In this document: in pieces, positions 5,816 through 43,582 of the stretch
Position numbering within the stretch: position 1 is the stretch's first letter
Layout of the letters: each line of letters opens with the position of its first letter
Source: a virus
IMG/VR virus record: IMGVR_UViG_3300020125_000155
Span: 1 to 64,000 of that record
Strand: one strand, 5' to 3'
Length of the DNA stretch: 64,000 nt
The notes under the pieces: generated by a model
The model's database searches: none
What the model saw: the letters and a program-made list of their open reading frames with translations, nothing else
What the model was told of the DNA's origin: nothing
Translations under genes and position numbers: made by a program

Positions 5816-6031
5816 ATGATCGAGCGGAGCCGTGCTGCAAAGACCCACTTACGAATTGGGATGTCTACGATTTGGGATCACAATTCCCCGCAACAGCGCG
5901 CCGAATACCTCCAGCAACTATCCAACGTGCCTGAGATTCGGGCAGGCTTGATCCGCCTAAACGAGGCTCGTCAAAAAAGTCGAGCAACTCAGCCACCATC
6001 CCTTCCACCAAATCAGAACGGCGGATCGTAA
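5816..6031 (+). CDS. Hypothetical protein (71 aa from first ATG; frame open from 5603)
   Basis: The same frame is open upstream to 5603 and reads protein-like (KEWAQRQWQRGKLAPAPQKPCDHGLFSDESAQLDCDDD), but it has no canonical start. Possibly an unusual start or a degraded gene. Confidence 0.35.
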   Translation: MIERSRAAKTHLRIGMSTIWDHNSPQQRAEYLQQLSNVPEIRAGLIRLNEARQKSRATQPPSLPPNQNGGS

Positions 6032-6266
6032 GCATTTCGCCGGGCGCGCCAGCCCCTTGGGGGGCCGCTCTATCTACCTTTTGCGTCTGCTTTGTCAAGG
6101 TTATAATCCCCTAAATTAATAGGCGGATGCTATCGCTCCAGCGGGCCCCCGGACGCAGGGGGCCCTAGCTCGAGGTGTAGCTTTCGCGCACAGACTGAAT
6201 AAATTCGTCAGACACGCCGGCTTCCTCATTCCGAACCGCGTTGTATAACCCATAATATCTAACCGC

Positions 6267-6629
6267 TCAGTCACAATCCAATCCATTTCCGCTAAACTCA
6301 AACACTTCCTCACGCGATTTGAAAGCCGTCAGGATCGGCGCCCCGCTCTTTGCCTCTTCACGCTTTTTTCTAGCTCGCCATCGCTTCCGCATTATCCCCA
6401 GATATTCGACCAGCAAGGTATCCGGTTGCTTCGGTTCTACTACCGATTGAGGTTTCGGCCATTTACCAAATATCTCCTTGAATTTGTGTGCCACCCACCC
6501 GTTTTTGTATCCCTTGTTTTTCGCCAGCCACAATAACCCCGCATACGTTTCCCTAAAATCTCTCTCCCTCAGTCTTGTGGCGACAAGTTCTGTTCTCGAA
6601 ATTCTCTTGCCTAATAAGCTTTTAACCAT
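6267..6629 (-). CDS. Hypothetical protein with WLAKNKGYKNGWVAHKFKEIFGKWP motif
   Basis: 120 aa from ATG 6629 (AGAGGG upstream); the track ORF extends to 6785. The GYKxGWxxHKFKExFG motif resembles C-terminal tails I recall from phage helicase-associated proteins. Confidence 0.45.
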   Translation of the reverse strand: MVKSLLGKRISRTELVATRLRERDFRETYAGLLWLAKNKGYKNGWVAHKFKEIFGKWPKPQSVVEPKQPDTLLVEYLGIMRKRWRARKKREEAKSGAPILTAFKSREEVFEFSGNGLDCD

Positions 6630-7051
6630 CTTACTTAACCCTCTATGCCGAATGGAGAAGCCATAGCTAAGGGCATAGGAAGGGTACACCCGGCTAAGAG
6701 CAGGGTCCTCCCCTATGCCTTCAGCGATCATGCCGAACGGAGCCAGCCGTCGCAGGGGCAGTCGACCCTTATGCACTGTCAGCACGGTTCGACTAGGCGT
6801 CTACATTTGGACCGCAAGATATGGACAGTCGGTAAGCCAGCACTTCCCCTCACGCCTTAAATGGACCGGGTATGCGCTTCGTCTGGACCCTTGGTAGCGC
6901 AAGTGACACTGCACGCCCCAACGCTTAGCGCCGACATGCAGTCGCTTCGGAGGAACCTTGACGGTTGGGCGGGATTTGACGTTTTTACGGAGTGTGTTAG
7001 AGGCTATTCCGTAAACCGGCTGGATAATCCCGCCAAGAATCTATCCAGTCC

Positions 7052-7090
7052 GCCCCGGCAGGCTCATTCCTGACCGGGGCAATCTTTTTC
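7052..7090 (+). terminator. Rho-independent terminator-like hairpin with T-run
   Basis: GCCCCGG (7052-7058), 15-nt loop, CCGGGGC (7074-7080), then aatcTTTTTc. It lies in a region of about 870 bp without convincing genes. Confidence 0.45.
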
Positions 7091-7405
7091 TAGCACTAGC
7101 TTATCCGCTACGCAAACGGCGCTAGATGTGGCGTGTAGCACGTTTTCCTACACGCTAGAGGAATCTATCGTTCTTGTTATGTCTAACTTGTCGTGCAGTG
7201 CAGCAATGCCGGTTCCATCGGTACTTCTTGCGTTGACTTATAAATCAACATGCGAGTTATCCCCTATCCATCGCACCTAATAGTTATCTCGCACTGCAAT
7301 AACCGTTGTGCCGCAGCGGTTTCTTTGATTCCGAATCACTAATTCACCAGAATCACAGAATCGAGTTTGCTAGTATTGGTTATCGGTTGGGATGAGCCAA
7401 TCGGT

Positions 7406-7480
7406 CGCCGGTCACACGGCGGATGTTTGAAAACCGAATCAGAACGAGAAAGCCCCGCGCCGGTCACGCGGCGCGGGGCT
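7406..7480 (+). promoter_or_regulatory. Two copies of the 16-mer CGCCGGTCAC(A/G)CGGCG, the second embedded in an 11-bp GC hairpin, upstream of gene 7504
   Basis: Copies at 7406-7421 and 7458-7473, 52 bp apart. The second forms the apex of AGCCCCGCGCC/GGCGCGGGGCT (7451-7480), which ends 10 nt before the GAGGAG RBS. Confidence 0.4.
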
Positions 7481-7503
7481 CACACAAGCGAGGAGCAATG
7501 ACT

Positions 7504-7950
7504 ATGCGCTACATCTACAATGACGGCGGCAGGGCCGCAAGTGACTACCAAGGCAAGGCGGGAGACTGTTGCGCCCGCGCCTTCGCCATAGCGACCGGCA
7601 GACCCTACCAAGAGGTCTACGACCTCATAAACGGACTGGCGAAGGGCGAGCGAACCGGCAAGAGAAAGCGCGGCAAGTCGAACGCCCGGACGGGGGTGTT
7701 TAAGGGAACCTCCCATAAACTAGCGTATGAGCTAGACAACCGAGTGCGCTGGGTTCCCTGCATGACTATCGGTTCCGGGTGCAAGGTCCACCTAAAGGAC
7801 GGCGAGCTACCCATGGGCCGGTTAGTGGTGAACCTCAGTAAGCACTTCGCCGCCGTGATCGACGGGGTGCTGCACGACACCTACGACTGCTCCCGGGAAG
7901 GAACCCGATGCGTGTACGGGTACTGGGACTTTACCAATCTTCGGGTATGA
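7504..7950 (+). CDS. Hypothetical protein with conserved-looking Cys/His motifs (possible papain-fold enzyme)
   Basis: 148 aa from ATG 7504 (GAGGAG 8 nt upstream). It begins MRYIYNDGGR and contains GKAGDCCARAFAIATG and HFAAVIDGVLHDTYD, followed by a strong terminator. Confidence 0.6.
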   Translation: MRYIYNDGGRAASDYQGKAGDCCARAFAIATGRPYQEVYDLINGLAKGERTGKRKRGKSNARTGVFKGTSHKLAYELDNRVRWVPCMTIGSGCKVHLKDGELPMGRLVVNLSKHFAAVIDGVLHDTYDCSREGTRCVYGYWDFTNLRV

Positions 7951-7952
7951 GA

Positions 7953-8615
7953 CTAAGCCGCCCCTTCGGGGGCGGCTTTTTCTTTGAGCCCGCCGTACTT
8001 AGCGCCTGTCCGGATACCCTCCTCCAAGACGCTCTCAATGGCGACTAGCTGGTAGCTAGGGCAAGGACTCCCAACGGCAGTGATTCGCCAGCCCTGAATT
8101 TCTAGTTCCTTGTTAGCTTGGTTTCTCATTGTGGGGATGCTGAGCCTCCGCCCCTCTGGCGGCGCGCTGTCGTAAAGCGCCTCATAAATCTCCCGAATGT
8201 TTGCCGGGGTTCTGCGCTCGAAAAGGAACCGGACTAATTGCTGCCGCCTCCAGCCGTGAACGTGGGGACACGGTTCCTTGAACGGCTTTAGGACGATCCG
8301 AGACCCCTCTACGGGGCCGAATTCCACTACCAGCTTCCGTAAATAATCGGGGCTATCGTCTGTGACCAGCTTAAGCCTTACGCAATAATCCAAGATGACT
8401 TTTACGCAATTATCTAAATCAGTTCGGGTATTATCCGAAACCATTATATGAGCTTCAAACGGCCCGATAATGGCGTTCTGCCGGTTCTGCCTAGACGCCA
8501 TGATAAGAGCGTCGGCCAACTCTATCCATTTCTTACGCTTTTTGTGTGCGGACCAGTCAATCCGCCTAACCATGTTGACGGAAAAAGGTATAGGTAAATC
8601 AAGGGTGACGGTCAT
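7953..8615 (-). CDS. rusA: RusA-like Holliday junction resolvase with ~100-aa C-terminal extension
   Basis: N-terminal LDLPIPFSVN ... DLDNCVKVILDYCV ... VTDDS matches RusA catalytic acidic motifs. At 220 aa it is far longer than the ~120 aa of RusA. Confidence 0.65.
   Translation of the reverse strand: MTVTLDLPIPFSVNMVRRIDWSAHKKRKKWIELADALIMASRQNRQNAIIGPFEAHIMVSDNTRTDLDNCVKVILDYCVRLKLVTDDSPDYLRKLVVEFGPVEGSRIVLKPFKEPCPHVHGWRRQQLVRFLFERRTPANIREIYEALYDSAPPEGRRLSIPTMRNQANKELEIQGWRITAVGSPCPSYQLVAIESVLEEGIRTGAKYGGLKEKAAPEGAA
7955..7985 (+). terminator. Rho-independent terminator
   Basis: AAGCCGCCCC-ttcg-GGGGCGGCTT followed by TTTTCTTT. It overlaps the last codons of the convergent RusA-like gene. 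Confidence 0.75.
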
Positions 8616-9088
8616 CGCGGGCGATTATACGCAATCTTGCAATGATGGTAGCAGTAGGACTCCACCCCCACTACCGGCGCGGAACAGTAGGCAAACCCTG
8701 CTTCCATCGGGTCGCCCAGCGGCCAGTGGCAGTCCAATCGGTTTAGGTCGCATAGGTCATAGGACGGGCCGGAAACCGTATTAAACGACCGCTGAGCGGC
8801 GTTCGACGGTGTGGGCATGGGAACAGGCTTGGCGAACGGCATCCCGTCAGAGCGCACGGCAGGCTTAAGCATCGTGGCTTTCGCCCGCTGCTGGTTCCTC
8901 TTCTGTTTCTCTTGAGCAACCCTAAGCACTTTCGTTCTCCGCTGCCCCACCACTCCCATACGATAAAGCTTACCTAGTATTTGACTCCTGGTGAATAAAC
9001 CACCGAAATAATTGACGATTTCCCCACCTTTTTTACCCGATAGCCATAAATTCCTAGCGACTTCGGCGTGTTCGTCTCGCATTATCAT
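8612..9088 (-). CDS. gcrA: GcrA-family cell-cycle regulator homologue
   Basis: The N-terminal HTH-like segment is ARNLWLSGKKGGEIVNYFGG-FTRSQILGKLYRMG. The C-terminal CHWPLGDP...FAYC...SYCYHHCKIAY matches the GcrA signature C-WP-GDP ... FC ... YC-H ... AY. Confidence 0.7.
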   Translation of the reverse strand: MIMRDEHAEVARNLWLSGKKGGEIVNYFGGLFTRSQILGKLYRMGVVGQRRTKVLRVAQEKQKRNQQRAKATMLKPAVRSDGMPFAKPVPMPTPSNAAQRSFNTVSGPSYDLCDLNRLDCHWPLGDPMEAGFAYCSAPVVGVESYCYHHCKIAYNRPR

Positions 9089-25479: not shown

Positions 25480-26085
25480 TCACGATTTGGCGCGGCGAGT
25501 TAGGGTGAAAATTATATCCCATACCGCATTGACGTGATCGCGCACCGCCTCTTGTAGATATTGTTCGTTACGCACACGCAATTCCGGCGCGATAAGGTAG
25601 CCCCAGCCGAAGTCGAAATCGCACTTAATCGGGTAATGATCTAGCTTCTGGGCATCACGCCAACCCTTGTTGAAATACAACATTGAGTTATCACAGATCG
25701 GAGGCCATGCGTGAAATGGGTCCTGTACCGCACGCATTGACGACCAGTAGGGCACAACAATAGTCATTTTTGCGCCCGCCTTGAGAATTCGCCAACACTC
25801 GTCCATGAACGGGAGCCGTTCAGGGCCGGTCAGATGCTCAAGAAAATGGGCGGTGTAAGCCTCGTCTACCGACTCGTCGTCAAGCGGCCAAGGGTACTTT
25901 TGCAAATCATAAACGTAATCGGCCCCGACATCGGGACTAATATCAATGCCAATCCAGTTGTCGCCCCATTGCTCTTTTGGTTCCGGGCGGCGTTGACCGC
26001 AGCCCAGATCAAGCCGTAACGGGTCGCCGGGTTTCTTTGGTGCGAAATTTACCGCTGTGACTTCTTTGAGTTTCGTCTTTGCCAT
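25480..26085 (-). CDS. Class I SAM-dependent methyltransferase
   Basis: 201 aa from ATG 26085 (GGTGGGAG RBS). LDLGCG motif I, HFLEHL, ILKAGAKMTIVVP. The start lies 77 nt inside the upstream SDR gene. Confidence 0.65.
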   Translation of the reverse strand: MAKTKLKEVTAVNFAPKKPGDPLRLDLGCGQRRPEPKEQWGDNWIGIDISPDVGADYVYDLQKYPWPLDDESVDEAYTAHFLEHLTGPERLPFMDECWRILKAGAKMTIVVPYWSSMRAVQDPFHAWPPICDNSMLYFNKGWRDAQKLDHYPIKCDFDFGWGYLIAPELRVRNEQYLQEAVRDHVNAVWDIIFTLTRRAKS

Positions 26086-26890
26086 TAACCCGCTCCCACC
26101 TTCTGTTTTCGTACTCAATGCAATCGCGCAGCGCATCCCGCACTGGTCGTAGACGGAAACCCGCTTGTTCTGCCTTGGACGTATTAAGCGTGCAGAACGA
26201 GCGTTCCGCCTTAACTGTTTTCAAGAAAGCATCTTCGCTTGCAAACCACTGTTTTTTCAAGCCAAGAAGAGAAATAATTTCTTTCGTCGTCACCGAACCA
26301 GGATTGGTAAAATTGTAAACTCCCGGCGCTGGCCTTTGGCTCACAGGAAGCTCACACAGCCAAGCGATAGCATCGGCGGCGTCGTCCAGACACGTCAGGG
26401 AATTCTCAGAGTCAATAAGAATTGGATAGCTACCCAGTTTGGTGAGTAGATTGCGCGGGTCAGGTCTATACGAAAACGGCATCCTAATTCGCAGCACATA
26501 AGATCGCGGACCAATCCTGCGCTCCGCTATTCCCTTGCAGACGGAATAGAACGAACCGAAGAAATTTTGCCCGTTTCCTTCACTCCACGGGCCACCCTCG
26601 TACAAACATCCGCTACCAATGTGGATAACCGGGCGCGTCCCGGCGCGGACATTGCATTCCATCGGCCAAAGGATATTGCCCTCAATACATTCCGCACGAT
26701 GAATTTCGCAAGCATCTACGTTAGGACGCCCGACATACCCAGCCGCATTGATAACAAAATCTCTTATGGAGTGCGGTTCGTGCTCCCAGCTTTCGCCGTG
26801 ATGAGCCCAGTTGAAGCGTAACCCCCGCGCCGTTAGCGCCTCCGAGATGGCAGTACCGACATAACCATGACCAATAAGTGTAATCACCAA
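26009..26890 (-). CDS. SDR-family sugar-nucleotide reductase/epimerase (RmlD-like)
   Basis: Rossmann motif IGHGYVG at the N-terminus and the catalytic Y-x-x-x-K (YSVCK). 293 aa. Confidence 0.65.
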   Translation of the reverse strand: MVITLIGHGYVGTAISEALTARGLRFNWAHHGESWEHEPHSIRDFVINAAGYVGRPNVDACEIHRAECIEGNILWPMECNVRAGTRPVIHIGSGCLYEGGPWSEGNGQNFFGSFYSVCKGIAERRIGPRSYVLRIRMPFSYRPDPRNLLTKLGSYPILIDSENSLTCLDDAADAIAWLCELPVSQRPAPGVYNFTNPGSVTTKEIISLLGLKKQWFASEDAFLKTVKAERSFCTLNTSKAEQAGFRLRPVRDALRDCIEYENRRWERVNGKDETQRSHSGKFRTKETRRPVTA

Positions 26891-26903
26891 ATCACGTCCT
26901 GTA

Positions 26904-27176
26904 TTAACCAGCGATACCGATAGGCGTCACGCCAGCCTGCGCTTGCTGTTGCGCCACTGTCGTTTCGATCTGCTTAACATTGAAAATCGTCCAGGACACC
27001 AAATCCGCCACCCATTGCAATAATGTCTGTGCTGGCGTGGGCGTGGGCGGCAATAGTGCCGCGTCGAGGATATTCCAGGCATTGAGCAACCGCTGTACGT
27101 CAGCATCCGGGAACGTGTAGGCTTTTGAGCCGTTGACAACGCCAGAACCAGACAGAGTGAAGGTCAATGTCGCCAT
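26904..27176 (-). CDS. Hypothetical protein (90 aa)
   Basis: ATG 27176 with a GAGGAGG RBS. It sits between the GT and SDR genes. Confidence 0.5.
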   Translation of the reverse strand: MATLTFTLSGSGVVNGSKAYTFPDADVQRLLNAWNILDAALLPPTPTPAQTLLQWVADLVSWTIFNVKQIETTVAQQQAQAGVTPIGIAG

Positions 27177-27187
27177 AACAGCCTCCT

Positions 27188-27910
27188 CTACCACATAGTA
27201 TCGTCTATTTCTGAGTAGTGCCCAACTTTTATCGAGCAATCTATCGCACAGCGATAGCCGCATTTACGAGCATCCGACCAGAAATAAAGGTCTTGCGTTG
27301 TCATCCCCTCTGTCCGTGAGGATGTTGTTTTGAACCATGGACGACGCAATTTCGGGTCCTTAAACATCGCCAGCCGGAATACGGTGAAGCCCATTCCAGT
27401 GCCGTTGCATTCAACTAACCCGCCATTAACATCGGGTTTTTGCGGGCGGAAATTGAAGGGGGCTGAATGAGGGTCGCCCCAAATTTGGGCTACCCCACCG
27501 TGGCCTTTGGTGAAATACAACCCACCAATAGCTGCATACTCGGGGTGCTTCTCCATTTTCGCAAGCAAGTTAAGAACACCATCGGGCGGCGGAGCATTGT
27601 CAGATTCAATGAAAAGAACATACTTCCAGTTTGACAGGTCGGGGTGGATTAAGATGCTTTCGATAGTTCGCGTATAGGCTTCACCAATTTCCATGCCCGC
27701 AGTGAACAAACGACAAGTTCGATTGTTGGGCGGAGACATGAGACCCAGCCACGAAGAAACCACACGGATAGGAACCGGCTTGATGGTGGGGATAACAATA
27801 ACTGTGGATAAATCCTTATAGGCTACACCTTGGTCAAGACGTTCTACGGCCTTGTCCAAGTTAGCATTGTGCTTGCCGCCATCGTATGCCGAAATAATCT
27901 GTGGGATCAT
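27188..27910 (-). CDS. GT-A fold glycosyltransferase (GT2-like)
   Basis: STVIVIPT, the FIESDN acidic motif and QDLYFWSDARKCGY...VGH. The start is ATGA-coupled to the stop of the 995-aa fibre gene. Confidence 0.55.
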   Translation of the reverse strand: MIPQIISAYDGGKHNANLDKAVERLDQGVAYKDLSTVIVIPTIKPVPIRVVSSWLGLMSPPNNRTCRLFTAGMEIGEAYTRTIESILIHPDLSNWKYVLFIESDNAPPPDGVLNLLAKMEKHPEYAAIGGLYFTKGHGGVAQIWGDPHSAPFNFRPQKPDVNGGLVECNGTGMGFTVFRLAMFKDPKLRRPWFKTTSSRTEGMTTQDLYFWSDARKCGYRCAIDCSIKVGHYSEIDDTMW

Positions 27911-30894
27911 AGCGTGTTGACGTTGTTCACATTAAAATACGGTATTCCGTAAGTTTGGTTTCCTACGGCGGTATTTATGGTCACTGGGTTCACTTGCGTT
28001 AAACCGATTGTACCGGGGAACGCCCCAGTCGTAGTACCATAAGTACCTTCAAATTGCAGCGGCGCAAGCCAAGCGCGGCTAAAGACGCTATCAACCAAAA
28101 ATCCTATGCCGCCAGCACTCCCCGAGATACCGGCATCCAATTGTGCCATAACCGCACTCATCGAAAGTATATTGGAGCCAGTCGATGACGTTGACGCGAT
28201 TAGCCCAAGCCAATACTCACCCGGCGTCATTAACGTAGCCATCGGCACAGTTGCCAACTTCATGCCGCGAGCCATCGTGGCAAGACCGCTCCCGGCAGAG
28301 GAGGTCGAGGCCCCGCCCCAACTCACTTTATAGCTTGCATTACTGCTTCCGGAAAAGAAGCCCGCCTGCGACGTGCTGAAAATTGTCGAGATATTGCTGG
28401 TATTCACCGTATCGCGGGTGAATAGTGCAACTGATAGGGTGTGCGATACCGCGTAACTTGCTGACGCGCCGGTTCCTGCGCTAACGCTGGATAAAAGATT
28501 TAACCGGCTTACAGTCATCGGCCATGGCACATTAAATGGAATTAGCCACAGGCTGTTTTGTCCAAGCGACAAATTGAAAGAGCCTGCAAACTCCCGTGGC
28601 TCCCACGCCGACATGGCCGCTGGTGCGGATAAGACAATCGAACTGTTGGAATAACCAGCACTGAGAATACCGACCGCATCAATCGAATGAGTGCGAGCAT
28701 CCAATGTCGTGCTTGATGATTGGCCTGTGGTGTTCCCGACCGCATAAAAACCTTCAGTTTGATTGGATTGATTGAAGGCTGAAACTGTAACAGTCGCGGA
28801 TTGCCCGTTTACCGATCCTGACAATGTAATGTTATTGCCACCGGCAAGAACCAGTTGGGCGTTAACCGTTCCTGACGTGCCCGACGTATTGCCTATACTC
28901 GATATGCCGCCGCTGAAATTACCGCCGCCAACCGAGGGGACGGAAATAATAACAGAGCCGCCAGACATACCGACCGACGCCACACCCGCCCCATCAAAGC
29001 TTAACGAGCGTGCGTCAACTGTGGTCGAAGAACTTGCCGTTGTCGTATTGCCGACCGCATACAGCCCCATCGTTTGCGCGCTTTGCGAGGCCGAAATGTC
29101 CATCGAGCCAGCGGAAAACCCGACCGTCACAATGCCGTCGCCACGGAAGCTGAGTGTCCGCGCGTCTACCGTAGTTGACGAACTCTCTGTAGTATTGCCG
29201 AGGCCGTATAAGCCAAGCGTCTGATTACTCTGCGCCGCGACAGATGCCGATATGATTAAGTGACTATTTGAGGACCACCCGACCGATACAATGCCGTCAC
29301 CGTCTATCGAGAGAGAACGTGCGTCATGCGTAGACGATGAACTGGTGCCGGTTGTATTACCCGAACCATAAATTCCTAGTGTCTGGTTGGTTTGTGCTGC
29401 GTCCGTTGCGGAAATAACGACCGAACCCGCCGAATAGCCAACGGACACAATTCCCGCGCCGTCGAACGAAATAGTACGCGCGTCTACCGTAGTTGACGTT
29501 GATTGCCCCGTGGTGTTCCCAACCGCATAAAGCCCCGCGCTCTGGTTCGTTTGAGCGGCTACCGATGCCGAGATAATCAAATGGCTGTTGCTAGACCAGC
29601 CCACCGATACGATCCCGTCGCCATCAATGGTCAGCGACCGCGCATCGTGCGTGGAGGACGACGATGTTCCTGTTGTGTTTACCGACCCGTAAATACCCAA
29701 CGTCTGATTTGTCTGGGCGGCGTCTGTCGCAGAAATAACAACTGACCCAGCCGAATATCCGACTGAGACAATCCCGGCACCATCAAACGAGAGTGTGCGC
29801 GCGTCGAGTGTAGTAGATGAACTTTGTGCGGTGGTATTCCCGACCGCATAAAAACCTTCAGTTTGATTGGTCTGAGCCACCGTAGTAGCGGAAATCAGGA
29901 GCGAGCCGCCTGACATGCCGACGCTGACAATGCCCTGACCCACATGCGTAAACGAGCGTGCGTCAACGGTAGAGGACGAGGATTGCCCGACTGTCTGACT
30001 CGAAGCGTAAACCCCGATGCTCTGATTGGTTTGCGCGATTGTATTGGGGGCTGAGATGAGTAAGTGGCTGTTGTTCGTACTCCACCCTACGGAGACAGCA
30101 CCAAGACCTTCTATGGTCAGAGAACGGGCGTCATAGGTAAGAGACGAACTGTTGCCAGTCGTGTTTTGTGAAGCGTATACGCCGTCCGTCTGATTGGTTT
30201 GTACGCCGGATAACACCAAAGTCCCGGCTGAGAACCCCGCCGATATAAGGCCCGCAGCACTGATGGTGACATTGTTCAAAGTGGTGCTGGAGCTTTGGGC
30301 GGTAGTATTGCCGCTGGCACCCCAAGTCTGTGCCGCCGCCGCCGCCGATGGCACTGAGATAACCACAGAGCCACCGGACATACCCACCGAGGCGATTCCG
30401 GCCCCATCGAAACTCAGCGAACGTGCATCAAGCGTGGTGGACGAAGATTGCCCCGTGGTGTTCCCAACCGCGTAGAAACCTTCGGTCTGTACCGACTGGC
30501 TGGCCGAAACTATGAGATGGGAATTGTTCGACCAGCCTACGCTTACGATGCCGTCGCCATCCAGCGTTAAGGACCGCGCATCGTAGGTAGCGAATGAGGA
30601 CTGCCCGGTAGTATTGACGGAACCGTAAACACCTAGTGTCTGGTTGGTTTGCCCGCCACCCGCTGCTCCGGAAAATATAATTGATTGGTTTAGCGTATCA
30701 GCGGATAGCGTAATGTTGTTGCCGCCCGCCAGCACGATCCCGGTTCCAGAAATCGTGGAGCCGCCCCCGGCAAAATTGCCGCCAAGCGTTATTGTCTGAT
30801 TATGGACTGAGTTCCAGTCGGATGGTCTAACAATAGAGGTCGCCGGGTCATCGGCAACCGTCTGATTGTAAACATGCTTGATTTGTCCGACCAC
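27907..30894 (-). CDS. Large repeat-containing tail fibre/spike (995 aa)
   Basis: N-terminal VRPSDWNSVHNQT is fibre-like. About twelve ~53-aa repeats follow (QTNQTLG-YGS-NTTG-SSS-T-DARSL--DGDGIVSVGWS-NSHLIISAS, alternating with ...FDGAGI-SVG-S-GSVVIS), then a distinct ~230-aa C-terminal domain. Confidence 0.75.
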   Translation of the reverse strand: MVGQIKHVYNQTVADDPATSIVRPSDWNSVHNQTITLGGNFAGGGSTISGTGIVLAGGNNITLSADTLNQSIIFSGAAGGGQTNQTLGVYGSVNTTGQSSFATYDARSLTLDGDGIVSVGWSNNSHLIVSASQSVQTEGFYAVGNTTGQSSSTTLDARSLSFDGAGIASVGMSGGSVVISVPSAAAAAQTWGASGNTTAQSSSTTLNNVTISAAGLISAGFSAGTLVLSGVQTNQTDGVYASQNTTGNSSSLTYDARSLTIEGLGAVSVGWSTNNSHLLISAPNTIAQTNQSIGVYASSQTVGQSSSSTVDARSFTHVGQGIVSVGMSGGSLLISATTVAQTNQTEGFYAVGNTTAQSSSTTLDARTLSFDGAGIVSVGYSAGSVVISATDAAQTNQTLGIYGSVNTTGTSSSSTHDARSLTIDGDGIVSVGWSSNSHLIISASVAAQTNQSAGLYAVGNTTGQSTSTTVDARTISFDGAGIVSVGYSAGSVVISATDAAQTNQTLGIYGSGNTTGTSSSSTHDARSLSIDGDGIVSVGWSSNSHLIISASVAAQSNQTLGLYGLGNTTESSSTTVDARTLSFRGDGIVTVGFSAGSMDISASQSAQTMGLYAVGNTTTASSSTTVDARSLSFDGAGVASVGMSGGSVIISVPSVGGGNFSGGISSIGNTSGTSGTVNAQLVLAGGNNITLSGSVNGQSATVTVSAFNQSNQTEGFYAVGNTTGQSSSTTLDARTHSIDAVGILSAGYSNSSIVLSAPAAMSAWEPREFAGSFNLSLGQNSLWLIPFNVPWPMTVSRLNLLSSVSAGTGASASYAVSHTLSVALFTRDTVNTSNISTIFSTSQAGFFSGSSNASYKVSWGGASTSSAGSGLATMARGMKLATVPMATLMTPGEYWLGLIASTSSTGSNILSMSAVMAQLDAGISGSAGGIGFLVDSVFSRAWLAPLQFEGTYGTTTGAFPGTIGLTQVNPVTINTAVGNQTYGIPYFNVNNVNTL

Positions 30895-31201: not shown

Positions 31202-31412
31202 TTGTCTCCGCCTTGCGTAATTCGTCCTGCAATACAGCCATAGTGGTTTCGTCGTCAGATTCGTCCGGTTTTCCCTTTCTAGCAAGGGAATAGAACGCCA
31301 AAAGGACCTTCAGCGCCTCTACCTTTTCGCCTAGTTTTACGTCCTCTCTGGAGGCTTGTTCGGCGGTTTTAGCCGCCAATTGCTCGATTTTGAGCAGAAT
31401 CTTCTTGCTCAT
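31155..31412 (-). CDS. Hypothetical helical protein (85 aa)
   Basis: ATGA-coupled to the 1000-aa gene upstream. Confidence 0.5.
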   Translation of the reverse strand: MSKKILLKIEQLAAKTAEQASREDVKLGEKVEALKVLLAFYSLARKGKPDESDDETTMAVLQDELRKAETNGSEIQHRTGRRTRV

Positions 31413-34411
31413 TGCATCGTCCCAGAGCCGGGATCTTGAAATGCACCGATAGCCCCGCCGACATTCATCCCGGTATTGAACCGAGATTGCAACACATCAC
31501 GCGCCATTGCCCGCTCCGCACCGCCCTTTCGTAGCTCGCCGGAAAGCCAGTTTATGAAATTTGGATGTGAAACACCGTCCATAACAGTTCTGAAAAACTT
31601 ACCCAACACAAACCGCCCTACAGAGGACACACCGGGAACCTTGCTAATAAGCTTCATTGGCTCACTCATACCCAAAGGAATCCGCGTCATAGGATGCATA
31701 ACCATAGACATGCCAGCCAAGGACCCACCAATATCCCCCTTAGACGCGCTGAAGAGGAATTCAGCATTTTTTACCAATTCCAGCATTGTGTCCCGGGTTA
31801 CACCGGGGAACATAATCGCTTGGACCTCCTCTGAAATGCCCCTTCGACCCTCACGCTCGCCAGCGCCACCAATCTCCTCCCGCAAGTGCCCAACTTTGCC
31901 CAGCGGCCTCTGGAATAACCGCTGTACGTAAACCTCCCGTAATGCGTTCATTTCCGGCGATTTAAGGCCAAACCTATTAGCCGCCGCTACAATCAAATCC
32001 TGATCCGCCAGAATGCGGTTAGCCGCCCGTATAGGCAGTGCCGTCATGCTTTTCTCGTAGAGAAAGTGCATGGGCTCTTGCCGCCGAGACTCCCGCATCG
32101 CTTTCATTTGAGCGTTGAAATCTTTGTCTACCCGCTTTACGCCCTCAGAGAGAGCTTTCAGCGGGTCCGCATCGGCCATCTGCTTGACCTGTGCCGCCAT
32201 CATCTCGGATCGGTCGATAAGAGATTGCAGGGTTTCGTCGCCGCCAACCTTCAGCGTAAGATTGCCCTCCAATTGCTGCACGTTACGGGCGGCTTTATTC
32301 AAACGGTCAGCAAACTCTTTGGAATATCCCTTCTCCAACGTACCGTCCTGATACATAGACTCGACGCTACGAGCGAAGCCCTTTGCTTCAACCTCACCAA
32401 GCAGATTGAGATTCTTGCTAATTACTTTTTGCGTATGCGCCGCTTGGACATATTTCCACAGCGTAGGACCCACGATATCCCGGGCGCGGCTTAGAGCTTC
32501 TGAGCGGTTAGCGTCAAACAATACATCGGCCAGAACATGAGGGTCTGGGGGGACGCCCTCCCTCAAACCCTTCATTATCGTAGTAACCATGCTGTCGTTA
32601 AGATACGGGACATTCTCCCGGTAGAAATTATCCGCAGTGTCCAGCAGTCGTGACGCCTCCCCCAAGCGCGGGTCGAGAGAAACATCATGGAGCATTTCGT
32701 TCACTCTACCAGCAAATTTCTTAACCGAACCTTCCCGCATACTCGGCGTGAGGTCCGCGTAATCTATCCCGCTTCGCAGCCATGACCTTAGCTGCCGTAA
32801 TTCCTTGAACGTGAGGTCCGTAGGCGGGACCGCTTCCGAAACAACCTTGCCACCCTCTCCTTCTACAGCTTCCTTACCGGCAAGCTTCTCCAACAAGGCA
32901 ACCTCCGGGTATTTGCCACGGAGTTGTTGCGGCATCTCAGCAAGAAAATCGGACGCTTCTCCGCCTAGCGTTTCGCCAGCCCCGGTAATAGGCGTGGCCC
33001 CGCCCGCTACATCGCTAACGTCATATAAACCGCTCGCCCGCTGCCTAGTCGCTACATTCCAAGAGCGAAATTTACGCCCCACCATGCGCCACAACGTCCC
33101 CGCCCTACCACCTTGCTCAGCCTGCATCGCCGCCGATTCAACATCATTTTTGATGTCGTTAATTCCGGCTTGCACAAAATCTTTTGCCGTTTGCGCCGTT
33201 TGCGCCTGCGCTTGCACTAAACGCTCTCGATTCGCTTTCTGTTGATCCGCAAAAGCCTGCTCGCCACCGGCTTCCCGAACGGGCGCACGAACATCCTCCA
33301 GCGCGGCCTTACGTGCGGCTTCCAGGGCGGCATCATCGCGGGCTAATTTTTCCTGAAATACATTGAGGGCTAATTCACCGGCACGTTTTGAGGAAACGCT
33401 TTTGGTCGCCGCCGTCAGACTCTCATCTAACTTCACCCCAATTTCAGGATGCTCAAGCAACTCTTTGGCGTCTGCTTCATAAACATCCCGGGCGCGTTCT
33501 CCGAATACATTGCGGCCTTGAAATATCTGGTCAAACTCCTCAAGCTTTGTGAGCATCGGAGCTTCTGGAGCCAAAATTGACGGCGGCACAACGCCGGGGC
33601 CGTGTTTTTCAGTTAGATTGCGGGCCCGCTCAATAGTTTCTTGAGTCGTGCCCAAAAAATATCTAGCCCGCTCCGGGGTTATACCAAATGATTCAAGAAT
33701 CTCATGCAAGCCTTCGGAAACATTCTTGGCCTTGTCTTTCAACCCCCGAGTCTTGCCAACAATTTTCGACGCCCCGCTAAGAGCCTTTGACGCCACCTTC
33801 CCTACGCCTTCACCAACAGCCGTATACGCGCCTTCCCAAAGTGTGCTGGAGACGTTTTCAGACAAGTTTTGATGGATACCGAAAAGAGCCAAGACGGCAT
33901 TATTGAAGGAACGCCCTCCCATCGCTCCCAGAACACCGCCGCCAGCAATACCCGCTGGGCCTAATCCCGTCCCCACTACTCCACCAGCGGTCATGCCACC
34001 CAAAGGCGCGGCTTCCGACGCTGTGTAACCGGCTAACTCACTGAGACCTCTCTGGGCCCCGGGACGGCGGAGCTTACCGTCATCGTCAATGTAAAGACCG
34101 GCAACGTCCTCCTTGACCTTGCCGGGATAAAACTTCTCCAAGGCTTGCTTTTTGGCGTCCGGAGTAACGGCCATGTCGTGCAGCATTTCCGCCGTAAATC
34201 CTATGCCCTCATAGGTAGGCTTAATACGCACCTTTTTGTCCGGACCCATGTATTCCGCGCCCTCCGGAACCGATGCAAAATCGGTGTCGTCCGCTATCTC
34301 ATAGGGCTTAACGCGGGTTTTTTTGTCTGGGCCAATATACTTGCTGCCGGGGCCTAACTTGGCAAAATCCTCATCCCCGCTGATAGTCGGAATGTTGGCT
34401 TCCGGCGTCAT
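31409..34411 (-). CDS. Very large internal virion / ejection protein candidate (~1000 aa)
   Basis: Size and position match T7-gp16-like internal proteins. It has a Gly-rich hydrophobic segment (GGMTAGGVVGTGLGPAGIAGGGVLGAMGG) and long helical regions. The start (ATG 34411) is uncertain. Confidence 0.55.
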   Translation of the reverse strand: MTPEANIPTISGDEDFAKLGPGSKYIGPDKKTRVKPYEIADDTDFASVPEGAEYMGPDKKVRIKPTYEGIGFTAEMLHDMAVTPDAKKQALEKFYPGKVKEDVAGLYIDDDGKLRRPGAQRGLSELAGYTASEAAPLGGMTAGGVVGTGLGPAGIAGGGVLGAMGGRSFNNAVLALFGIHQNLSENVSSTLWEGAYTAVGEGVGKVASKALSGASKIVGKTRGLKDKAKNVSEGLHEILESFGITPERARYFLGTTQETIERARNLTEKHGPGVVPPSILAPEAPMLTKLEEFDQIFQGRNVFGERARDVYEADAKELLEHPEIGVKLDESLTAATKSVSSKRAGELALNVFQEKLARDDAALEAARKAALEDVRAPVREAGGEQAFADQQKANRERLVQAQAQTAQTAKDFVQAGINDIKNDVESAAMQAEQGGRAGTLWRMVGRKFRSWNVATRQRASGLYDVSDVAGGATPITGAGETLGGEASDFLAEMPQQLRGKYPEVALLEKLAGKEAVEGEGGKVVSEAVPPTDLTFKELRQLRSWLRSGIDYADLTPSMREGSVKKFAGRVNEMLHDVSLDPRLGEASRLLDTADNFYRENVPYLNDSMVTTIMKGLREGVPPDPHVLADVLFDANRSEALSRARDIVGPTLWKYVQAAHTQKVISKNLNLLGEVEAKGFARSVESMYQDGTLEKGYSKEFADRLNKAARNVQQLEGNLTLKVGGDETLQSLIDRSEMMAAQVKQMADADPLKALSEGVKRVDKDFNAQMKAMRESRRQEPMHFLYEKSMTALPIRAANRILADQDLIVAAANRFGLKSPEMNALREVYVQRLFQRPLGKVGHLREEIGGAGEREGRRGISEEVQAIMFPGVTRDTMLELVKNAEFLFSASKGDIGGSLAGMSMVMHPMTRIPLGMSEPMKLISKVPGVSSVGRFVLGKFFRTVMDGVSHPNFINWLSGELRKGGAERAMARDVLQSRFNTGMNVGGAIGAFQDPGSGTMQ

Positions 34412-34436
34412 CGTCTCGCCGGTCAATTCCTTAAAT

Positions 34437-36296
34437 TCACTTCCCGATGACTCGGCCACGACTCCACTCCGGTTGACTATCACCCTTTGGCGTGTCCGTT
34501 TTCTCTTCGGGCGCTTCAAACGGTTTACCTTCTATAATGCCGTTGATATTCTCCCGCATTCTCACAAATTGCTCGCGTAAATCATTCCAGTTACGCAAGG
34601 CGTTTGGTCTCGTATCCCCCGCGTTAAGACCTCTCACAACCTTACTTACCTTTTCATGCTCGCCAGCCAGCGGGCGGGATGTAGATTCCGTTATGAGGCG
34701 CGGGGCAATTGTCTGTAGCTCGTTAATTAGGCTTTCTGCCTCGCGTCTATCCGTAGCATTTGAACCCAGAAGGTTTGACAAGCTTTCCGCTGATCTAGTC
34801 GCGTAACCAGCAGCGCCGACCGCACCAACATTCTTCTTGATAAGTTTGATTAACTTATCAATCGTCTCAATTCCCGTTTTGTAACGGTCAGAGGCAATGC
34901 GGAGGTCCGCCGACTTATTGGCTGTTAATTGTGTGGCCTTGGCTTTGCTAATTTCCTCCATTGCCTTGTCGTGGCGCTCTTTTTCCTGTTCCGCAGTTAT
35001 ATCCTTTGCCAATCGACCAGCGGCAATGTCATCCATGTTCTTTTTATGAAGCGCATCCTCTTCCGCCTTTGCCTCCGCAATCGTTAGCCTCTTGCTCGCC
35101 AGTCCTTCCATAGTCTCATCGTGACGAGCCCTATTTTTAGCGGCAAACTCGGCAATATCAGCGCGCTTTGCAGCAATCGGGTTGTGGGCAGTAACTACAT
35201 CCCGCGCGTTCTGGTCATGCGCTTCATTTCTTTCCTTCTCAGTGGCGTCCCCGTGCGCGGCATCCCAAGCGTCATTACGCTTATCAATCTCTCCCTGAAT
35301 GGCACCAGAAGCGGTACGTCCATAACGGCCAGCGTACTTTGCTTCCGATATTTTCTTCTGCGCGTCAGTCAGGGCCGTAAGCGGGTCCTTACCGTCCTTA
35401 ATACCCTTGTTGAACGCATCCTGAAGCGCCTTGGTCTCCAGCATGGCGGGAACAACCTTGGCGTATTCCTGCATTGCCCTGTTGCGGCCCTCAATCACAT
35501 CCCAAGATTCTTTATCCATACCCGCGTGTAACAGGCCAAGCATCCGGGCATCGTTATACTTTACGGCATGAGCCTCCAGCTTTGTCCGCCAAGATCCGTC
35601 TCGTTTGTCATAAAGCTTGGCGATGTCCTCAAACTCAGTGTGTTCCAGATTGTGCCGCTTGACCGCTAGATCGCTATTGACTTTCCATTCGTCAAAAGCG
35701 CGGTTGTAGGCATCCATATCCCCTACGTTGATGGCGTTCATCGCCGCCGCCCCGCCAACCAAGGCCGCGTTCATTGGCATTGCGGAGAACGAAGAAGCGA
35801 GCATGGCAAAGACAAACCCGGGGGAGCCTAGCTGCTCCCATAAATCAGTTTTGGGCGGAGCCATGGTTCGCGGATTCCACGGTTTCAGGTCCGCCGTGCT
35901 GGCGCTTTCCTGCGCGAACTTCCTCTCCATCATCCTCTGGAATTTATCGTCGTCCGCCGCCCGTCTCTTATCCAAATAATCCTCGTATCCAATCTTCTCC
36001 TGAAGAAGCCCGGTTTGGAAGTTACGATTCTCCTCAATCCTTTCCGGTGTTGGATAGCCCTGCATGAAATCCGATATGGACGGCGTAGCGACATCCGAAA
36101 CCAAACTGGAATCGGTTGAATCGGGAATGGCGTACCGCGACGTGTCGGTTATGGTCGAAACCAGACTTGGACCGGGAGCGGTATCGGGCGCATCCGGGAC
36201 ATCAGGCGTCGTGTCCGCAGAAGCAACAACCGGATCGGGCGGATCGGGCGTTACATTACCGCCCCGCCGAGGAGGGTCAGTGGCGGGCTCAAGCAT
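34437..36296 (-). CDS. Internal virion protein candidate (619 aa)
   Basis: Pro/Asp/Thr-rich N-terminus, a hydrophobic segment (GFVFAMLASSFSAMPMNAALVGGAAAM) and a helical C-terminal half. Confidence 0.55.
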   Translation of the reverse strand: MLEPATDPPRRGGNVTPDPPDPVVASADTTPDVPDAPDTAPGPSLVSTITDTSRYAIPDSTDSSLVSDVATPSISDFMQGYPTPERIEENRNFQTGLLQEKIGYEDYLDKRRAADDDKFQRMMERKFAQESASTADLKPWNPRTMAPPKTDLWEQLGSPGFVFAMLASSFSAMPMNAALVGGAAAMNAINVGDMDAYNRAFDEWKVNSDLAVKRHNLEHTEFEDIAKLYDKRDGSWRTKLEAHAVKYNDARMLGLLHAGMDKESWDVIEGRNRAMQEYAKVVPAMLETKALQDAFNKGIKDGKDPLTALTDAQKKISEAKYAGRYGRTASGAIQGEIDKRNDAWDAAHGDATEKERNEAHDQNARDVVTAHNPIAAKRADIAEFAAKNRARHDETMEGLASKRLTIAEAKAEEDALHKKNMDDIAAGRLAKDITAEQEKERHDKAMEEISKAKATQLTANKSADLRIASDRYKTGIETIDKLIKLIKKNVGAVGAAGYATRSAESLSNLLGSNATDRREAESLINELQTIAPRLITESTSRPLAGEHEKVSKVVRGLNAGDTRPNALRNWNDLREQFVRMRENINGIIEGKPFEAPEEKTDTPKGDSQPEWSRGRVIGK

Positions 36297-42655: not shown

Positions 42656-43582
42656 TTAGTACCTCCCATACGGATTCACGACCCGCCCAATCCTCGCATA
42701 TTGCGATTTACGCAGGCACATATTGTCGAACAAATCGAGATAAAACTTACCGGCGTTAAAGTTCTGGATTCCCAGATAGGCGAGATGGGCCGCAAAATAC
42801 GGGACAACATCATCCCATGGCGGCTGAATAATCTCTACGCTCTGGTCATCGGTCAAATCTTGCGGAATGCACTGGCAATCCCACTCCATTTGATAGGTCT
42901 GGGACGGAAGCGGGTACATATAAAACGACCCTGACGCGCCCTGACCGAATTGCGAGCCGAATGTGGGGACGTACTGATACTGAAACGGGTACTGGCGAAT
43001 CATCGCCTGATAGGTCGAGAACGAGTAAACCGGCACTGAGTATCGGTAGTTGGAATAAATTATGGACACCCCGCGCACGGCATAAACCGATTCCACCCCC
43101 GGGAACTCGGACAAGTCCACATCGGCAAAGTTATAGACCTCCTGCCCGCGATTTAGCGTATTGACGAATTTAACGGTGGGCGTAACGGTCGCACCTACCC
43201 CCGTTGGATCGGTGATCGTCATAACGGGGATAAAATAACCAGCACCGCCGTATATATTGTTGATCCCGGTAATAACGCCGTTGAATACCTGCGCCGTCGC
43301 TTGGGCTTGCGCTCCGTTGGGAAGCGGGGGCGCGCCAGAAGGAAAATCCGGAGGCGTAATTACGCAAACCGGGGAGGTATAACCGCTCCCGCCACTGGTT
43401 ACAGTCCATTGGGTAATCTGCCCGCTAACCGTCGTTAACACGCGAACGCACTGGGTACGTTCGGCAATCTCACGGCGAGCGCGATTGATGTATTCGATTA
43501 AATCTTCGGGATTGAATAGCTCTTGCTTCTCATCCCGAAGGAATCTCTGCGTTTGCTGGAGATAGTCGAACAGCGTACTCAT
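42656..43582 (-). CDS. Structural protein with two G-x-G-Y modules (308 aa)
   Basis: SGGSGYTSPVCVI and GGAGYFIPVMTI. ATGA-coupled to the upstream gene. Confidence 0.55.
   Translation of the reverse strand: MSTLFDYLQQTQRFLRDEKQELFNPEDLIEYINRARREIAERTQCVRVLTTVSGQITQWTVTSGGSGYTSPVCVITPPDFPSGAPPLPNGAQAQATAQVFNGVITGINNIYGGAGYFIPVMTITDPTGVGATVTPTVKFVNTLNRGQEVYNFADVDLSEFPGVESVYAVRGVSIIYSNYRYSVPVYSFSTYQAMIRQYPFQYQYVPTFGSQFGQGASGSFYMYPLPSQTYQMEWDCQCIPQDLTDDQSVEIIQPPWDDVVPYFAAHLAYLGIQNFNAGKFYLDLFDNMCLRKSQYARIGRVVNPYGRY

Follow-up and report, generated by a model that had tools for sequence, protein, structure and literature searches.

Polyubiquitin is known for identical protein repeats whose genes carry abundant synonymous differences, a pattern for which purifying selection of great strength has been held responsible (Nei et al., 2000, as discussed in PMC10457151). 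Repetitive genes have also been engineered by codon scrambling, so that identical protein repeats are specified by DNA without repeats, which should be resistant to deletion by recombination (PMC4403262). Here, we analysed a stretch of 64,000 nt of viral DNA (IMGVR_UViG_3300020125_000155, positions 1 to 64,000, referred to as the window, on which all coordinates are based), which encodes on its minus strand a fibre-like protein of 995 amino acids with a long array of repeat units. Two copies of a two-unit block in this array are nearly the same protein, and their DNA bears no trace of common ancestry beyond the identity that the protein imposes. We consider it probable that an old duplication, followed by very strong purifying selection, explains how the protein came to be frozen and its codons scrambled.

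As in polyubiquitin- and histone-type repeats, the units of the fibre protein are arranged head to tail, near-identical in protein and extensively different at synonymous sites, with their similarity kept by selection at the protein level. Unlike in polyubiquitin, no concerted evolution was detectable at the DNA level, and the units stay joined in a single fibrous virion protein instead of being cleaved into monomers; one array moreover combines several conserved subtypes, which sets it apart from polyubiquitin- and histone-type repeats. Codon-scrambled constructs reach by design the outcome that the fibre gene reached by saturation over time; in contrast to the constructs, tests for avoidance of identity were negative or marginal in the fibre gene, and pairs of units from different genomes show the same scrambling. 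The protein also resembles the shafts of phage tail fibres and tailspikes and trimeric autotransporter adhesins, as a long array rich in Ser, Thr, Gly and Asn is followed by a C-terminal beta-sandwich and the gene is located in a virion module; a few family members carry the Joint Genome Institute (JGI) label 'trimeric autotransporter adhesin'. In contrast, searches of Pfam, PHROG and PDB sequences linked the protein to no known fibre or adhesin repeat, and the fold of its repeats is not confidently predicted. Known fibre shaft repeats are usually degenerate and not 90-100% conserved, and fibre-type proteins are usually among the fastest-evolving proteins of phages. The mechanism of saturation combined with strong purifying selection is conceptually ordinary, and it is the degree of protein conservation that is unusual for a phage fibre-like repeat. 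The gene and those parts of the array that are compared below are as follows.

27907..30894, minus strand: gene for the fibre-like repeat protein, an open reading frame (ORF) of 995 amino acids with a GTG start
28606..30648, minus strand: array of 12 units of ~53 amino acids each (U1-U12), from the unit alignment
29500..29877, minus strand: upstream copy of the duplicated block, amino acids 340-465 (end of U5, U6, U7 and start of U8), from the self-match at an offset of 107
29179..29556, minus strand: downstream copy of the duplicated block, amino acids 447-572 (end of U7, U8, U9 and start of U10), from the self-match at an offset of 107
29542..29721, minus strand: second stretch compared in the preliminary description, amino acids 392-451, from re-translation and position mapping
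29221..29400, minus strand: first stretch compared in the preliminary description, amino acids 499-558, from re-translation

The preliminary description of this DNA had compared the two 60-codon stretches by hand and arrived at 57 identical residues, about 45 of which use a different codon. Re-translation by script gave exactly these values, together with 124 identical nucleotides out of 180, and the serine switches AGT/TCG and TCA/AGC and the leucine switch CTA/TTG that had been named were all found between the two stretches. The reverse complements of both translate to AAQTNQTLGIYGS[G/V]NTTGTSSSSTHDARSL[S/T]IDGDGIVSVGWSSNSHLIISASVAAQ[S/T]NQ. The duplication of a 107-residue pair of units with a period of 321 nt is likewise real, and the block is longer than had been reported: residues 340-465 and 447-572, which lie 107 amino acids (321 nt) apart, have 110 of their 126 residues in common. 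The estimate of about 12 repeat units agrees with the 12 units of ~53 amino acids found here.

As a null model, both peptides were back-translated at random 20,000 times using the codon usage of the fibre gene itself. Over the 126-residue block, the two copies share 256 of 378 nucleotides (67.7%) compared to 258.5±7.0 in the simulation, they contain six exact runs of at least 8 nt compared to 5.9, and the longest exact run is 10 nt compared to 12.4±2.9 (P = 0.17). The total nucleotide identity of the copies is thus not low with respect to the simulation (P = 0.31-0.38). At the duplicated block, no DNA repeat was reported by Tandem Repeats Finder, and a sensitive blastn self-comparison of the fibre gene yielded only 69.8% identity over 447 nt. 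The number of shared codons was 28 in the block, with 35.9±4.7 in the simulation (P = 0.056), and 12 in the 60 codons of the preliminary description, with 18.8±3.4 in the simulation (P = 0.028); both P values are uncorrected, and the pair had been chosen for looking extreme. At the level of single units, U7 and U9 are identical at 51 of 53 residues and share 11 codons (16.3 expected), and U6 and U8 are identical at 46 of 53 residues and share 15 codons (14.8 expected). The evidence for an active avoidance of identity in the U7/U9 pair is marginal at best.

Such an avoidance had been offered in the preliminary description as one of two explanations. As recombination deletes repeats that are identical in DNA, synonymous changes that break the homology might be favoured, or only those arrays that have diverged might survive. 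The low numbers of shared codons and a longest exact run of 8-10 nt in the two comparisons are in line with this idea, and engineered repeats have been stabilised in exactly this manner (PMC4403262). On the other hand, the P values do not take into account how the pair was picked, and total nucleotide identity, the longest run and the number of runs of at least 8 nt are all within expectation. We return to this explanation below, once the unit pairs of other genomes have been described.

The preliminary description had further proposed that the synonymous sites of the pair are saturated. This was confirmed, but saturation is not peculiar to U7/U9: all 66 unit pairs of the fibre gene are at saturation, with a shared-codon fraction of 0.308 among identical residues compared to 0.303 expected. 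U7/U9 and U6/U8 stand out by their low amino acid divergence and not by a higher synonymous divergence. The fibre gene and 12 other long genes sampled in the window have a weak codon bias and near-uniform usage; in these 13 long ORFs, codon homozygosity is ~0.26-0.32 for four-fold families and ~0.17-0.22 for Ser and Leu, and the GC content at third codon positions (GC3) ranges from 0.47 to 0.68. Because the codon bias is weak, only ~30% of the codons are shared at saturation, which is why the contrast between protein and DNA is so stark. The 64 kb yielded no tRNA genes.

Near-uniform codon usage looks artificial at first, and it is the only point in favour of an artefact, be it a mistake in transcription, a chimeric assembly or a synthetic construct with scrambled codons. 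However, a script was used to read and translate the sequence anew, the weak bias is common to the 12 other long window genes that were sampled, and 57 natural genes of independent metagenomic samples exhibit the same pattern, so that an artefact is effectively refuted. A synthetic or back-translated origin was rejected on the same grounds, namely the weak bias of the 12 sampled genes and the likeness of the natural homologues. We also considered an overlapping or antisense ORF, such as those on the plus strand at 28772-29224 or 29503-29745, as the source of the constraint; this was rejected on logic, as the synonymous sites are free.

Alternatively, the U8-U9 block, or U6-U7, could have been gained by recombination from a distant phage that encodes the same protein units with other codons. 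A donor pool would be available, since near-identical units with unrelated codons occur in other phage genomes, and the genomic surroundings in which the repeat gene is found together with its glycosyltransferase cassette (see below) are otherwise unrelated, as if the two were mobile. However, GC3 is 0.43 and 0.63 for U6 and U7 and 0.58 and 0.49 for U8 and U9 and does not separate the two blocks, which led us to reject the idea that a genome with another GC content had recently donated a block, and U7 and U9 are nearer to each other than to any other of the 909 units sampled from the family. An import would also alter only the origin of the block, and the same extreme purifying selection would still be required. 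We therefore regard it as improbable.

At least 876 homologues of the fibre protein were found in metagenomes, the closest of which is 54% identical. Among these, there was no Pfam family and no informative source name, with generic JGI labels on a few. At the DNA level, the fibre gene matched none of 50,697 phage records, searches of the protein against Pfam, PHROG, NCBIfam and PDB sequences gave nothing above threshold, with PHROG returning only a weak match to a family of unknown function, and no description of this repeat family was found in literature searches. Using a hidden Markov model derived from the units of the window, 909 units were detected in 118 of the top 120 homologous proteins. 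Their consensus is TNQTlGlYAvGNTTGQSSStTlDARSLSfnGaGivSVGySNGSivISAptaAQ. The polar columns Q3, T13, S18, S19, S47 and Q53 are 89-100% conserved, and the near-invariant Ser/Thr positions of the unit are T13, S18, S19, S40 and S47. Two N-x-S/T motifs per unit are frequent but not universal, with the Asn of column 12 being a Gln in 22% of the units.

For the codon analysis of the family, we used the DNA of the homologues, comprising 402 units from 57 non-redundant genes with a GC3 of 0.12-0.93. Within these genes, an amino acid identity of at least 90% is reached by 67 unit pairs, and their shared-codon fraction is 0.428-0.435 compared to 0.415-0.420 expected at saturation. None of these pairs lies more than 4 standard deviations (SD) above saturation, and no pair whatever lies below -3 SD. 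The implied fraction of unchanged codons is 0.02-0.05 across all identity classes and 0.02-0.03 for pairs at least 90% identical; for the block in the window, we infer that it is not above roughly 0.02-0.05. A signature of gene conversion or unequal crossing-over, that is, a DNA similarity within a gene beyond what the protein needs, was not found among the pairs at least 90% identical in the 57 genes. As a positive control, the near-identical overlapping contigs L080 and L081, taken to be the same phage, have 100% shared codons (z ≈ 9.7), and the method therefore detects real DNA identity. By comparison, units of locus L002 that are identical at 49 of 49 aligned residues share 27 codons, with 24.7 expected.

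Locus L002 (IMGVR_UViG_3300005577_000804) is in itself a more extreme example than the window: its gene, with a GC3 of 0.13, has three units that are 98-100% identical (amino acids 725-777, 1104-1156 and 1201-1252). We also considered whether some ancestry remains visible in the serine codon families. The within-gene deficit of switches between TCN and AGY is equal in all identity classes, which indicates a position-specific preference and not recency, and residual ancestry was therefore rejected.

Pairs of units that are at least 90% identical are ~14 times commoner within genes (67 of 1311) than between genes (144 of 39827; in both cases among pairs at least 50% identical), and this enrichment comes without a DNA signal. 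One might speculate that selection homogenises the units at the protein level, if equivalent or stacked units must match, for instance in ladders of N, Q, S and T or in a shared recognition site for an enzyme or receptor. Whenever one unit changed, the same change would then be favoured in its partner without any gene conversion. The high conservation of the polar columns given above would agree with this. However, duplications that are specific to a lineage and predate synonymous saturation give an equal enrichment, and the W, M, Y and F subtypes stand side by side in one array, so that identity between neighbours is evidently not required. We hold such a homogenisation to be very improbable.

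The same regime becomes apparent when units are compared between phage genomes. U4 of the window and a unit of locus L008 are identical at 54 of 56 residues and share 15 codons (17.4 expected), with a nucleotide identity of 0.71. U5 is identical at 48 of 53 residues both to a unit of L004 (GC3 0.83), with 16 shared codons (14.8 expected), and to a unit of L009 (GC3 0.18), with 11 shared codons (12.6 expected). U6 and a unit of L007 are identical at 47 of 53 residues and share 14 codons (14.4 expected); this best outside match of U6 (89%) equals its paralogue U8 (87%) in closeness. In total, 144 between-gene unit pairs are at least 90% identical, and between-genome pairs of this class are as fully scrambled in their codons as within-gene pairs, with serine TCN/AGY switches at equilibrium (171 observed, 160 expected). 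For calibration, we used the gene directly downstream of the fibre gene, which encodes a putative GT-A glycosyltransferase (GT). Between the same genomes, it is synonymously saturated (61 shared codons, 58.5 expected) and its product is only 42-65% identical. The best-matching units, which are 89-96% identical between genomes despite remodelled base composition, are therefore far more conserved than the linked enzyme, although the latter is itself well conserved, with ~3-10 fold fewer amino acid differences.

These comparisons also bear on selection for nucleotide divergence. In its favour, no DNA-similar duplicate is present in any of the 57 genes despite the 67 pairs that are at least 90% identical in amino acids. 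Against it, the within-gene pairs are family-wide slightly above saturation (0.43 compared to 0.42) with no z value below -3, and the between-genome pairs, which are not exposed to intragenic recombination, are equally scrambled. Moreover, slow birth and death of units at a ratio of nonsynonymous to synonymous substitution rates (omega) of ~0.01-0.02, with subtypes differing by 30-50%, would also predict an absence of young duplicates. Selection for nucleotide divergence is thus neither needed nor supported, with exact runs that are not shortened, and we consider it quite improbable as the cause of the pattern. A passive stability filter, as well as an imported scrambled block, would need the same constraint at the protein level.

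The other explanation of the preliminary description, an ancient duplication under extreme purifying selection on the repeats, is supported by our results and can be extended to units from different genomes and to the 57 homologous genes: synonymous sites are saturated, and the pattern extends over the whole family, both within and between genomes. We propose that U8-U9 arose by an ancient duplication of U6-U7, a two-unit block of the array of 53-residue units, or that an equivalent block was taken up at an early time. Each synonymous site would later have been mutated several times, erasing the DNA memory of the event, and purifying selection would have purged nearly all amino acid changes, so that only two of 54 residues differ in U7/U9 and 16 of 126 in the block as a whole. 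The repeat module would be under a like regime across a large family of uncharacterised fibre-like proteins of phage virions, in which the unit subtypes would be near-frozen in protein, with codons, serine codon families and GC3 redrawn in each genome. As the fractions of unchanged codons imply ~3 or more synonymous hits per codon compared to 0.13 amino acid differences per codon, omega would be roughly 0.02 or less for the units, a value that is an upper bound only. With omega at ~0.01-0.02, the family would be tens of saturation times old, and recent duplications would then be rare among the deeply diverged genes sampled here; together with subtypes that differ by 30-50%, the lack of young duplicates would not call for a filter against DNA repeats. 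U7 and U9 are mutual nearest neighbours among the 909 units (96% identical, compared to 82% to U1 and at most 76% in other phages), which fits a duplication that is specific to the lineage and nevertheless old.

Several points weigh against this explanation. With the best homologue being only 54% identical, no relative with unsaturated synonymous divergence was found, which is why omega is bounded only from above and the age of the duplication is not measurable. That U7 and U9 form the closest pair among the 909 units would also result from co-evolution driven by selection. The shared codons are somewhat under saturation in both comparisons (12 compared to 18.8, P = 0.028, and 28 compared to 35.9, P = 0.056). 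In addition, the AlphaFold2 (AF2) monomer model of the repeats is of low confidence and offers no structural reason for the constraint.

The extreme conservation of the units indicates very little sequence freedom, as would be expected of an element with a role in structure, in ligand binding or as a substrate of modification, and the suggestion in the preliminary description that the exact repeat sequence matters is thereby supported. The likeliest cause of the constraint seems to be a tight packing of the units in an obligate oligomeric beta-structure with polar ladders of N, Q, S and T, and/or their use as acceptors for a co-transcribed GT-A and methyltransferase cassette. The repeat unit lends itself to structural studies and glycoproteomics. 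Moreover, the family represents a natural set of protein repeats without DNA repeats, which can serve for tests of repeat instability in phage genes and for the design of stable repetitive constructs. For the scanning of genomes, a word of caution is appropriate: codon scrambling between identical repeats follows from saturation and weak codon bias and does not per se imply a special mechanism. The cassette directly 3' of the repeat gene comprises the following features.

25480-27910, minus strand: conserved cassette directly 3' of the repeat gene, consisting of GT-A, a 119-amino-acid ORF, the RmlD/epimerase-like ORF and the methyltransferase
27188..27910, minus strand: predicted GT-A fold glycosyltransferase, 240 amino acids, from the AF2 model and Foldseek; its ATG overlaps the TGA stop of the fibre gene (ATGA)
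26009..26890, minus strand: RmlD/epimerase-like protein, a candidate member of the cassette (Pfam RmlD_sub_bind, E = 0.0017, below the cut-off)
25480..26136, minus strand: S-adenosylmethionine-dependent methyltransferase, member of the cassette (Pfam Methyltransf_11, E = 8.5e-7, above the cut-off)

Through the ATGA in which its stop codon and the start codon of the GT-A gene overlap, the fibre gene is translationally coupled to the latter. The AF2 model of the GT-A protein has a predicted local distance difference test score (pLDDT) of 89, and its best Foldseek match in the PDB is the viral A197 of STIV (PDB 2c0n, E = 1.7e-10, TM 0.71), followed by LH3, ColGalT1 and ppGalNAcT, which are enzymes that glycosylate proteins; the sequence matches are weak (Pfam GT2, a PHROG glycosyltransferase family and SpsA) and agree with the fold. 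The protein collection contains 4665 unnamed homologues of this GT-A family. Viral contigs of IMG/VR contributed 74 related loci. A GT-A homologue is located downstream on the same strand in 61 of the 86 related loci fetched and a methyltransferase homologue is present in 53 of these 86. The RmlD/epimerase-like protein has a 50% identical homologue in L007, and genes of the epimerase family are equally placed in L004 and L007. In another locus, L005, the repeat gene is followed by an ORF of 229 amino acids that is not homologous to the GT (21% identity).

Glycosyltransferases encoded by phages have been described to modify capsid and tail tube proteins of mycobacteriophages (Freeman et al., 2023, as cited in PMC10877033), and this makes glycosylation of the units reasonable as a cause of the sequence constraint. 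As in phage virion glycosylation, a virus-encoded, putative GT-A adjoins and is translationally coupled with the gene of a Ser/Thr-rich structural protein, a pairing that is kept in 61 of 86 loci. In contrast to glycosylation in mycobacteriophages, the putative acceptor is a repeat array and not a C-terminal tail, and the cassette adds a methyltransferase and a possible sugar epimerase or reductase. Glycosylation of the Ser/Thr/Asn-rich units by the coupled putative GT-A is plausible. A bolder proposal, which we consider doubtful as a whole, is that the 53-residue unit is an undescribed and exceptionally conserved virion-fibre module that is always paired with its own GT-A and methyltransferase cassette. 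The units would be frozen (omega <0.02 at a GC3 of 0.12-0.93) both as glycosylation acceptors and as rungs of an obligate oligomeric polar-ladder structure, and the arrays would tolerate no repetition at the DNA level and grow only by old duplication or by the import of units that are already scrambled.

The repeat array is embedded in a fibre protein with the order N-terminal 37 amino acids, Gly-rich linker module, 11 units, second linker module, one unit and C-terminal beta-sandwich domain. Its gene is preceded by a Shine-Dalgarno-like AGGGGA motif 5 nt 5' of the GTG start. These parts and the neighbouring virion genes are listed below.

30655-30783, minus strand: Gly-rich linker module copy 1, amino acids 38-80, before U1 (from the sequence)
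28768-28920, minus strand: Gly-rich linker module copy 2, amino acids 659-709, between U11 and U12 (from the sequence)
27907..28602, minus strand: C-terminal non-repeat beta-sandwich domain, ~amino acids 765-995, predicted by AF2
31409-34519, minus strand: ORF of 1036 amino acids immediately upstream of the fibre region, no family match; the listed TTG start is probably not real
42656-43582, minus strand: SU10_adaptor protein, 308 amino acids (Pfam, E = 4.8e-8)

The two copies of the linker module follow the pattern ..GGNF.GG.S.I....G...LAGGNNITLS..., and the second copy, which sits between U11 and U12, splits the array into segments of 11 units and one unit. Distinct subtypes of the unit (W, M, Y and F types) adjoin one another within a single array. 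The full-length monomer was modelled with AF2 using a 68-sequence alignment, which resulted in a mean pLDDT of 52; the repeats, with values of 30-65, were modelled as one beta-hairpin per unit. The poor modelling of the repeats as a monomer would fit an obligate oligomer, yet it is uninformative. Over much of the C-terminal domain, pLDDT is 70-94, with some segments of low confidence, and the predicted fold is a beta-sandwich. In a Foldseek search of the fibre model against the PDB, none of the matches was significant, with weak matches to jelly-roll/TNF-like and phage fibre or spike structures, all with E > 1e-3; the matches in the BFVD database are extended fibre-like models with a TM of ~0.1.

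The fibre gene lies on the same strand between the gene for the 1036-amino-acid protein and homologues of tail proteins, downstream of the terminase and an SU10-type adaptor, which places it in the virion module of what appears to be a novel podovirus-like phage; its naming as a fibre is our interpretation. The SU10_adaptor match suggests a podovirus-like tail architecture, and the 1036-amino-acid ORF, rich in Ala, Gly, Glu and Lys and with Gly-rich stretches, looks like an internal virion or tape-measure-like protein. Most other structural ORFs of the window have no Pfam or PHROG match, and we therefore regard the phage as very novel.

With regard to possible hosts, a single unit-level pattern was scanned over 185,579 species genomes. 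The repeat was detected in three contigs of metagenome-assembled genomes (MAGs) only, namely L010 and L011, assigned to Saccharimonadales/Saccharibacteria, and L012, assigned to Dehalococcoidales; a homologous protein, P0013, is also labelled Saccharimonadales. Phages with this module may infect uncultivated bacteria, and the matches in Saccharibacteria MAGs are merely a hint at the host, or may be a binning artefact. In L005, the repeat gene (6001-9036) is located between the genes for the portal and the S78 prohead protease and not in a tail module, and members of the family may act as head fibres in some phages.

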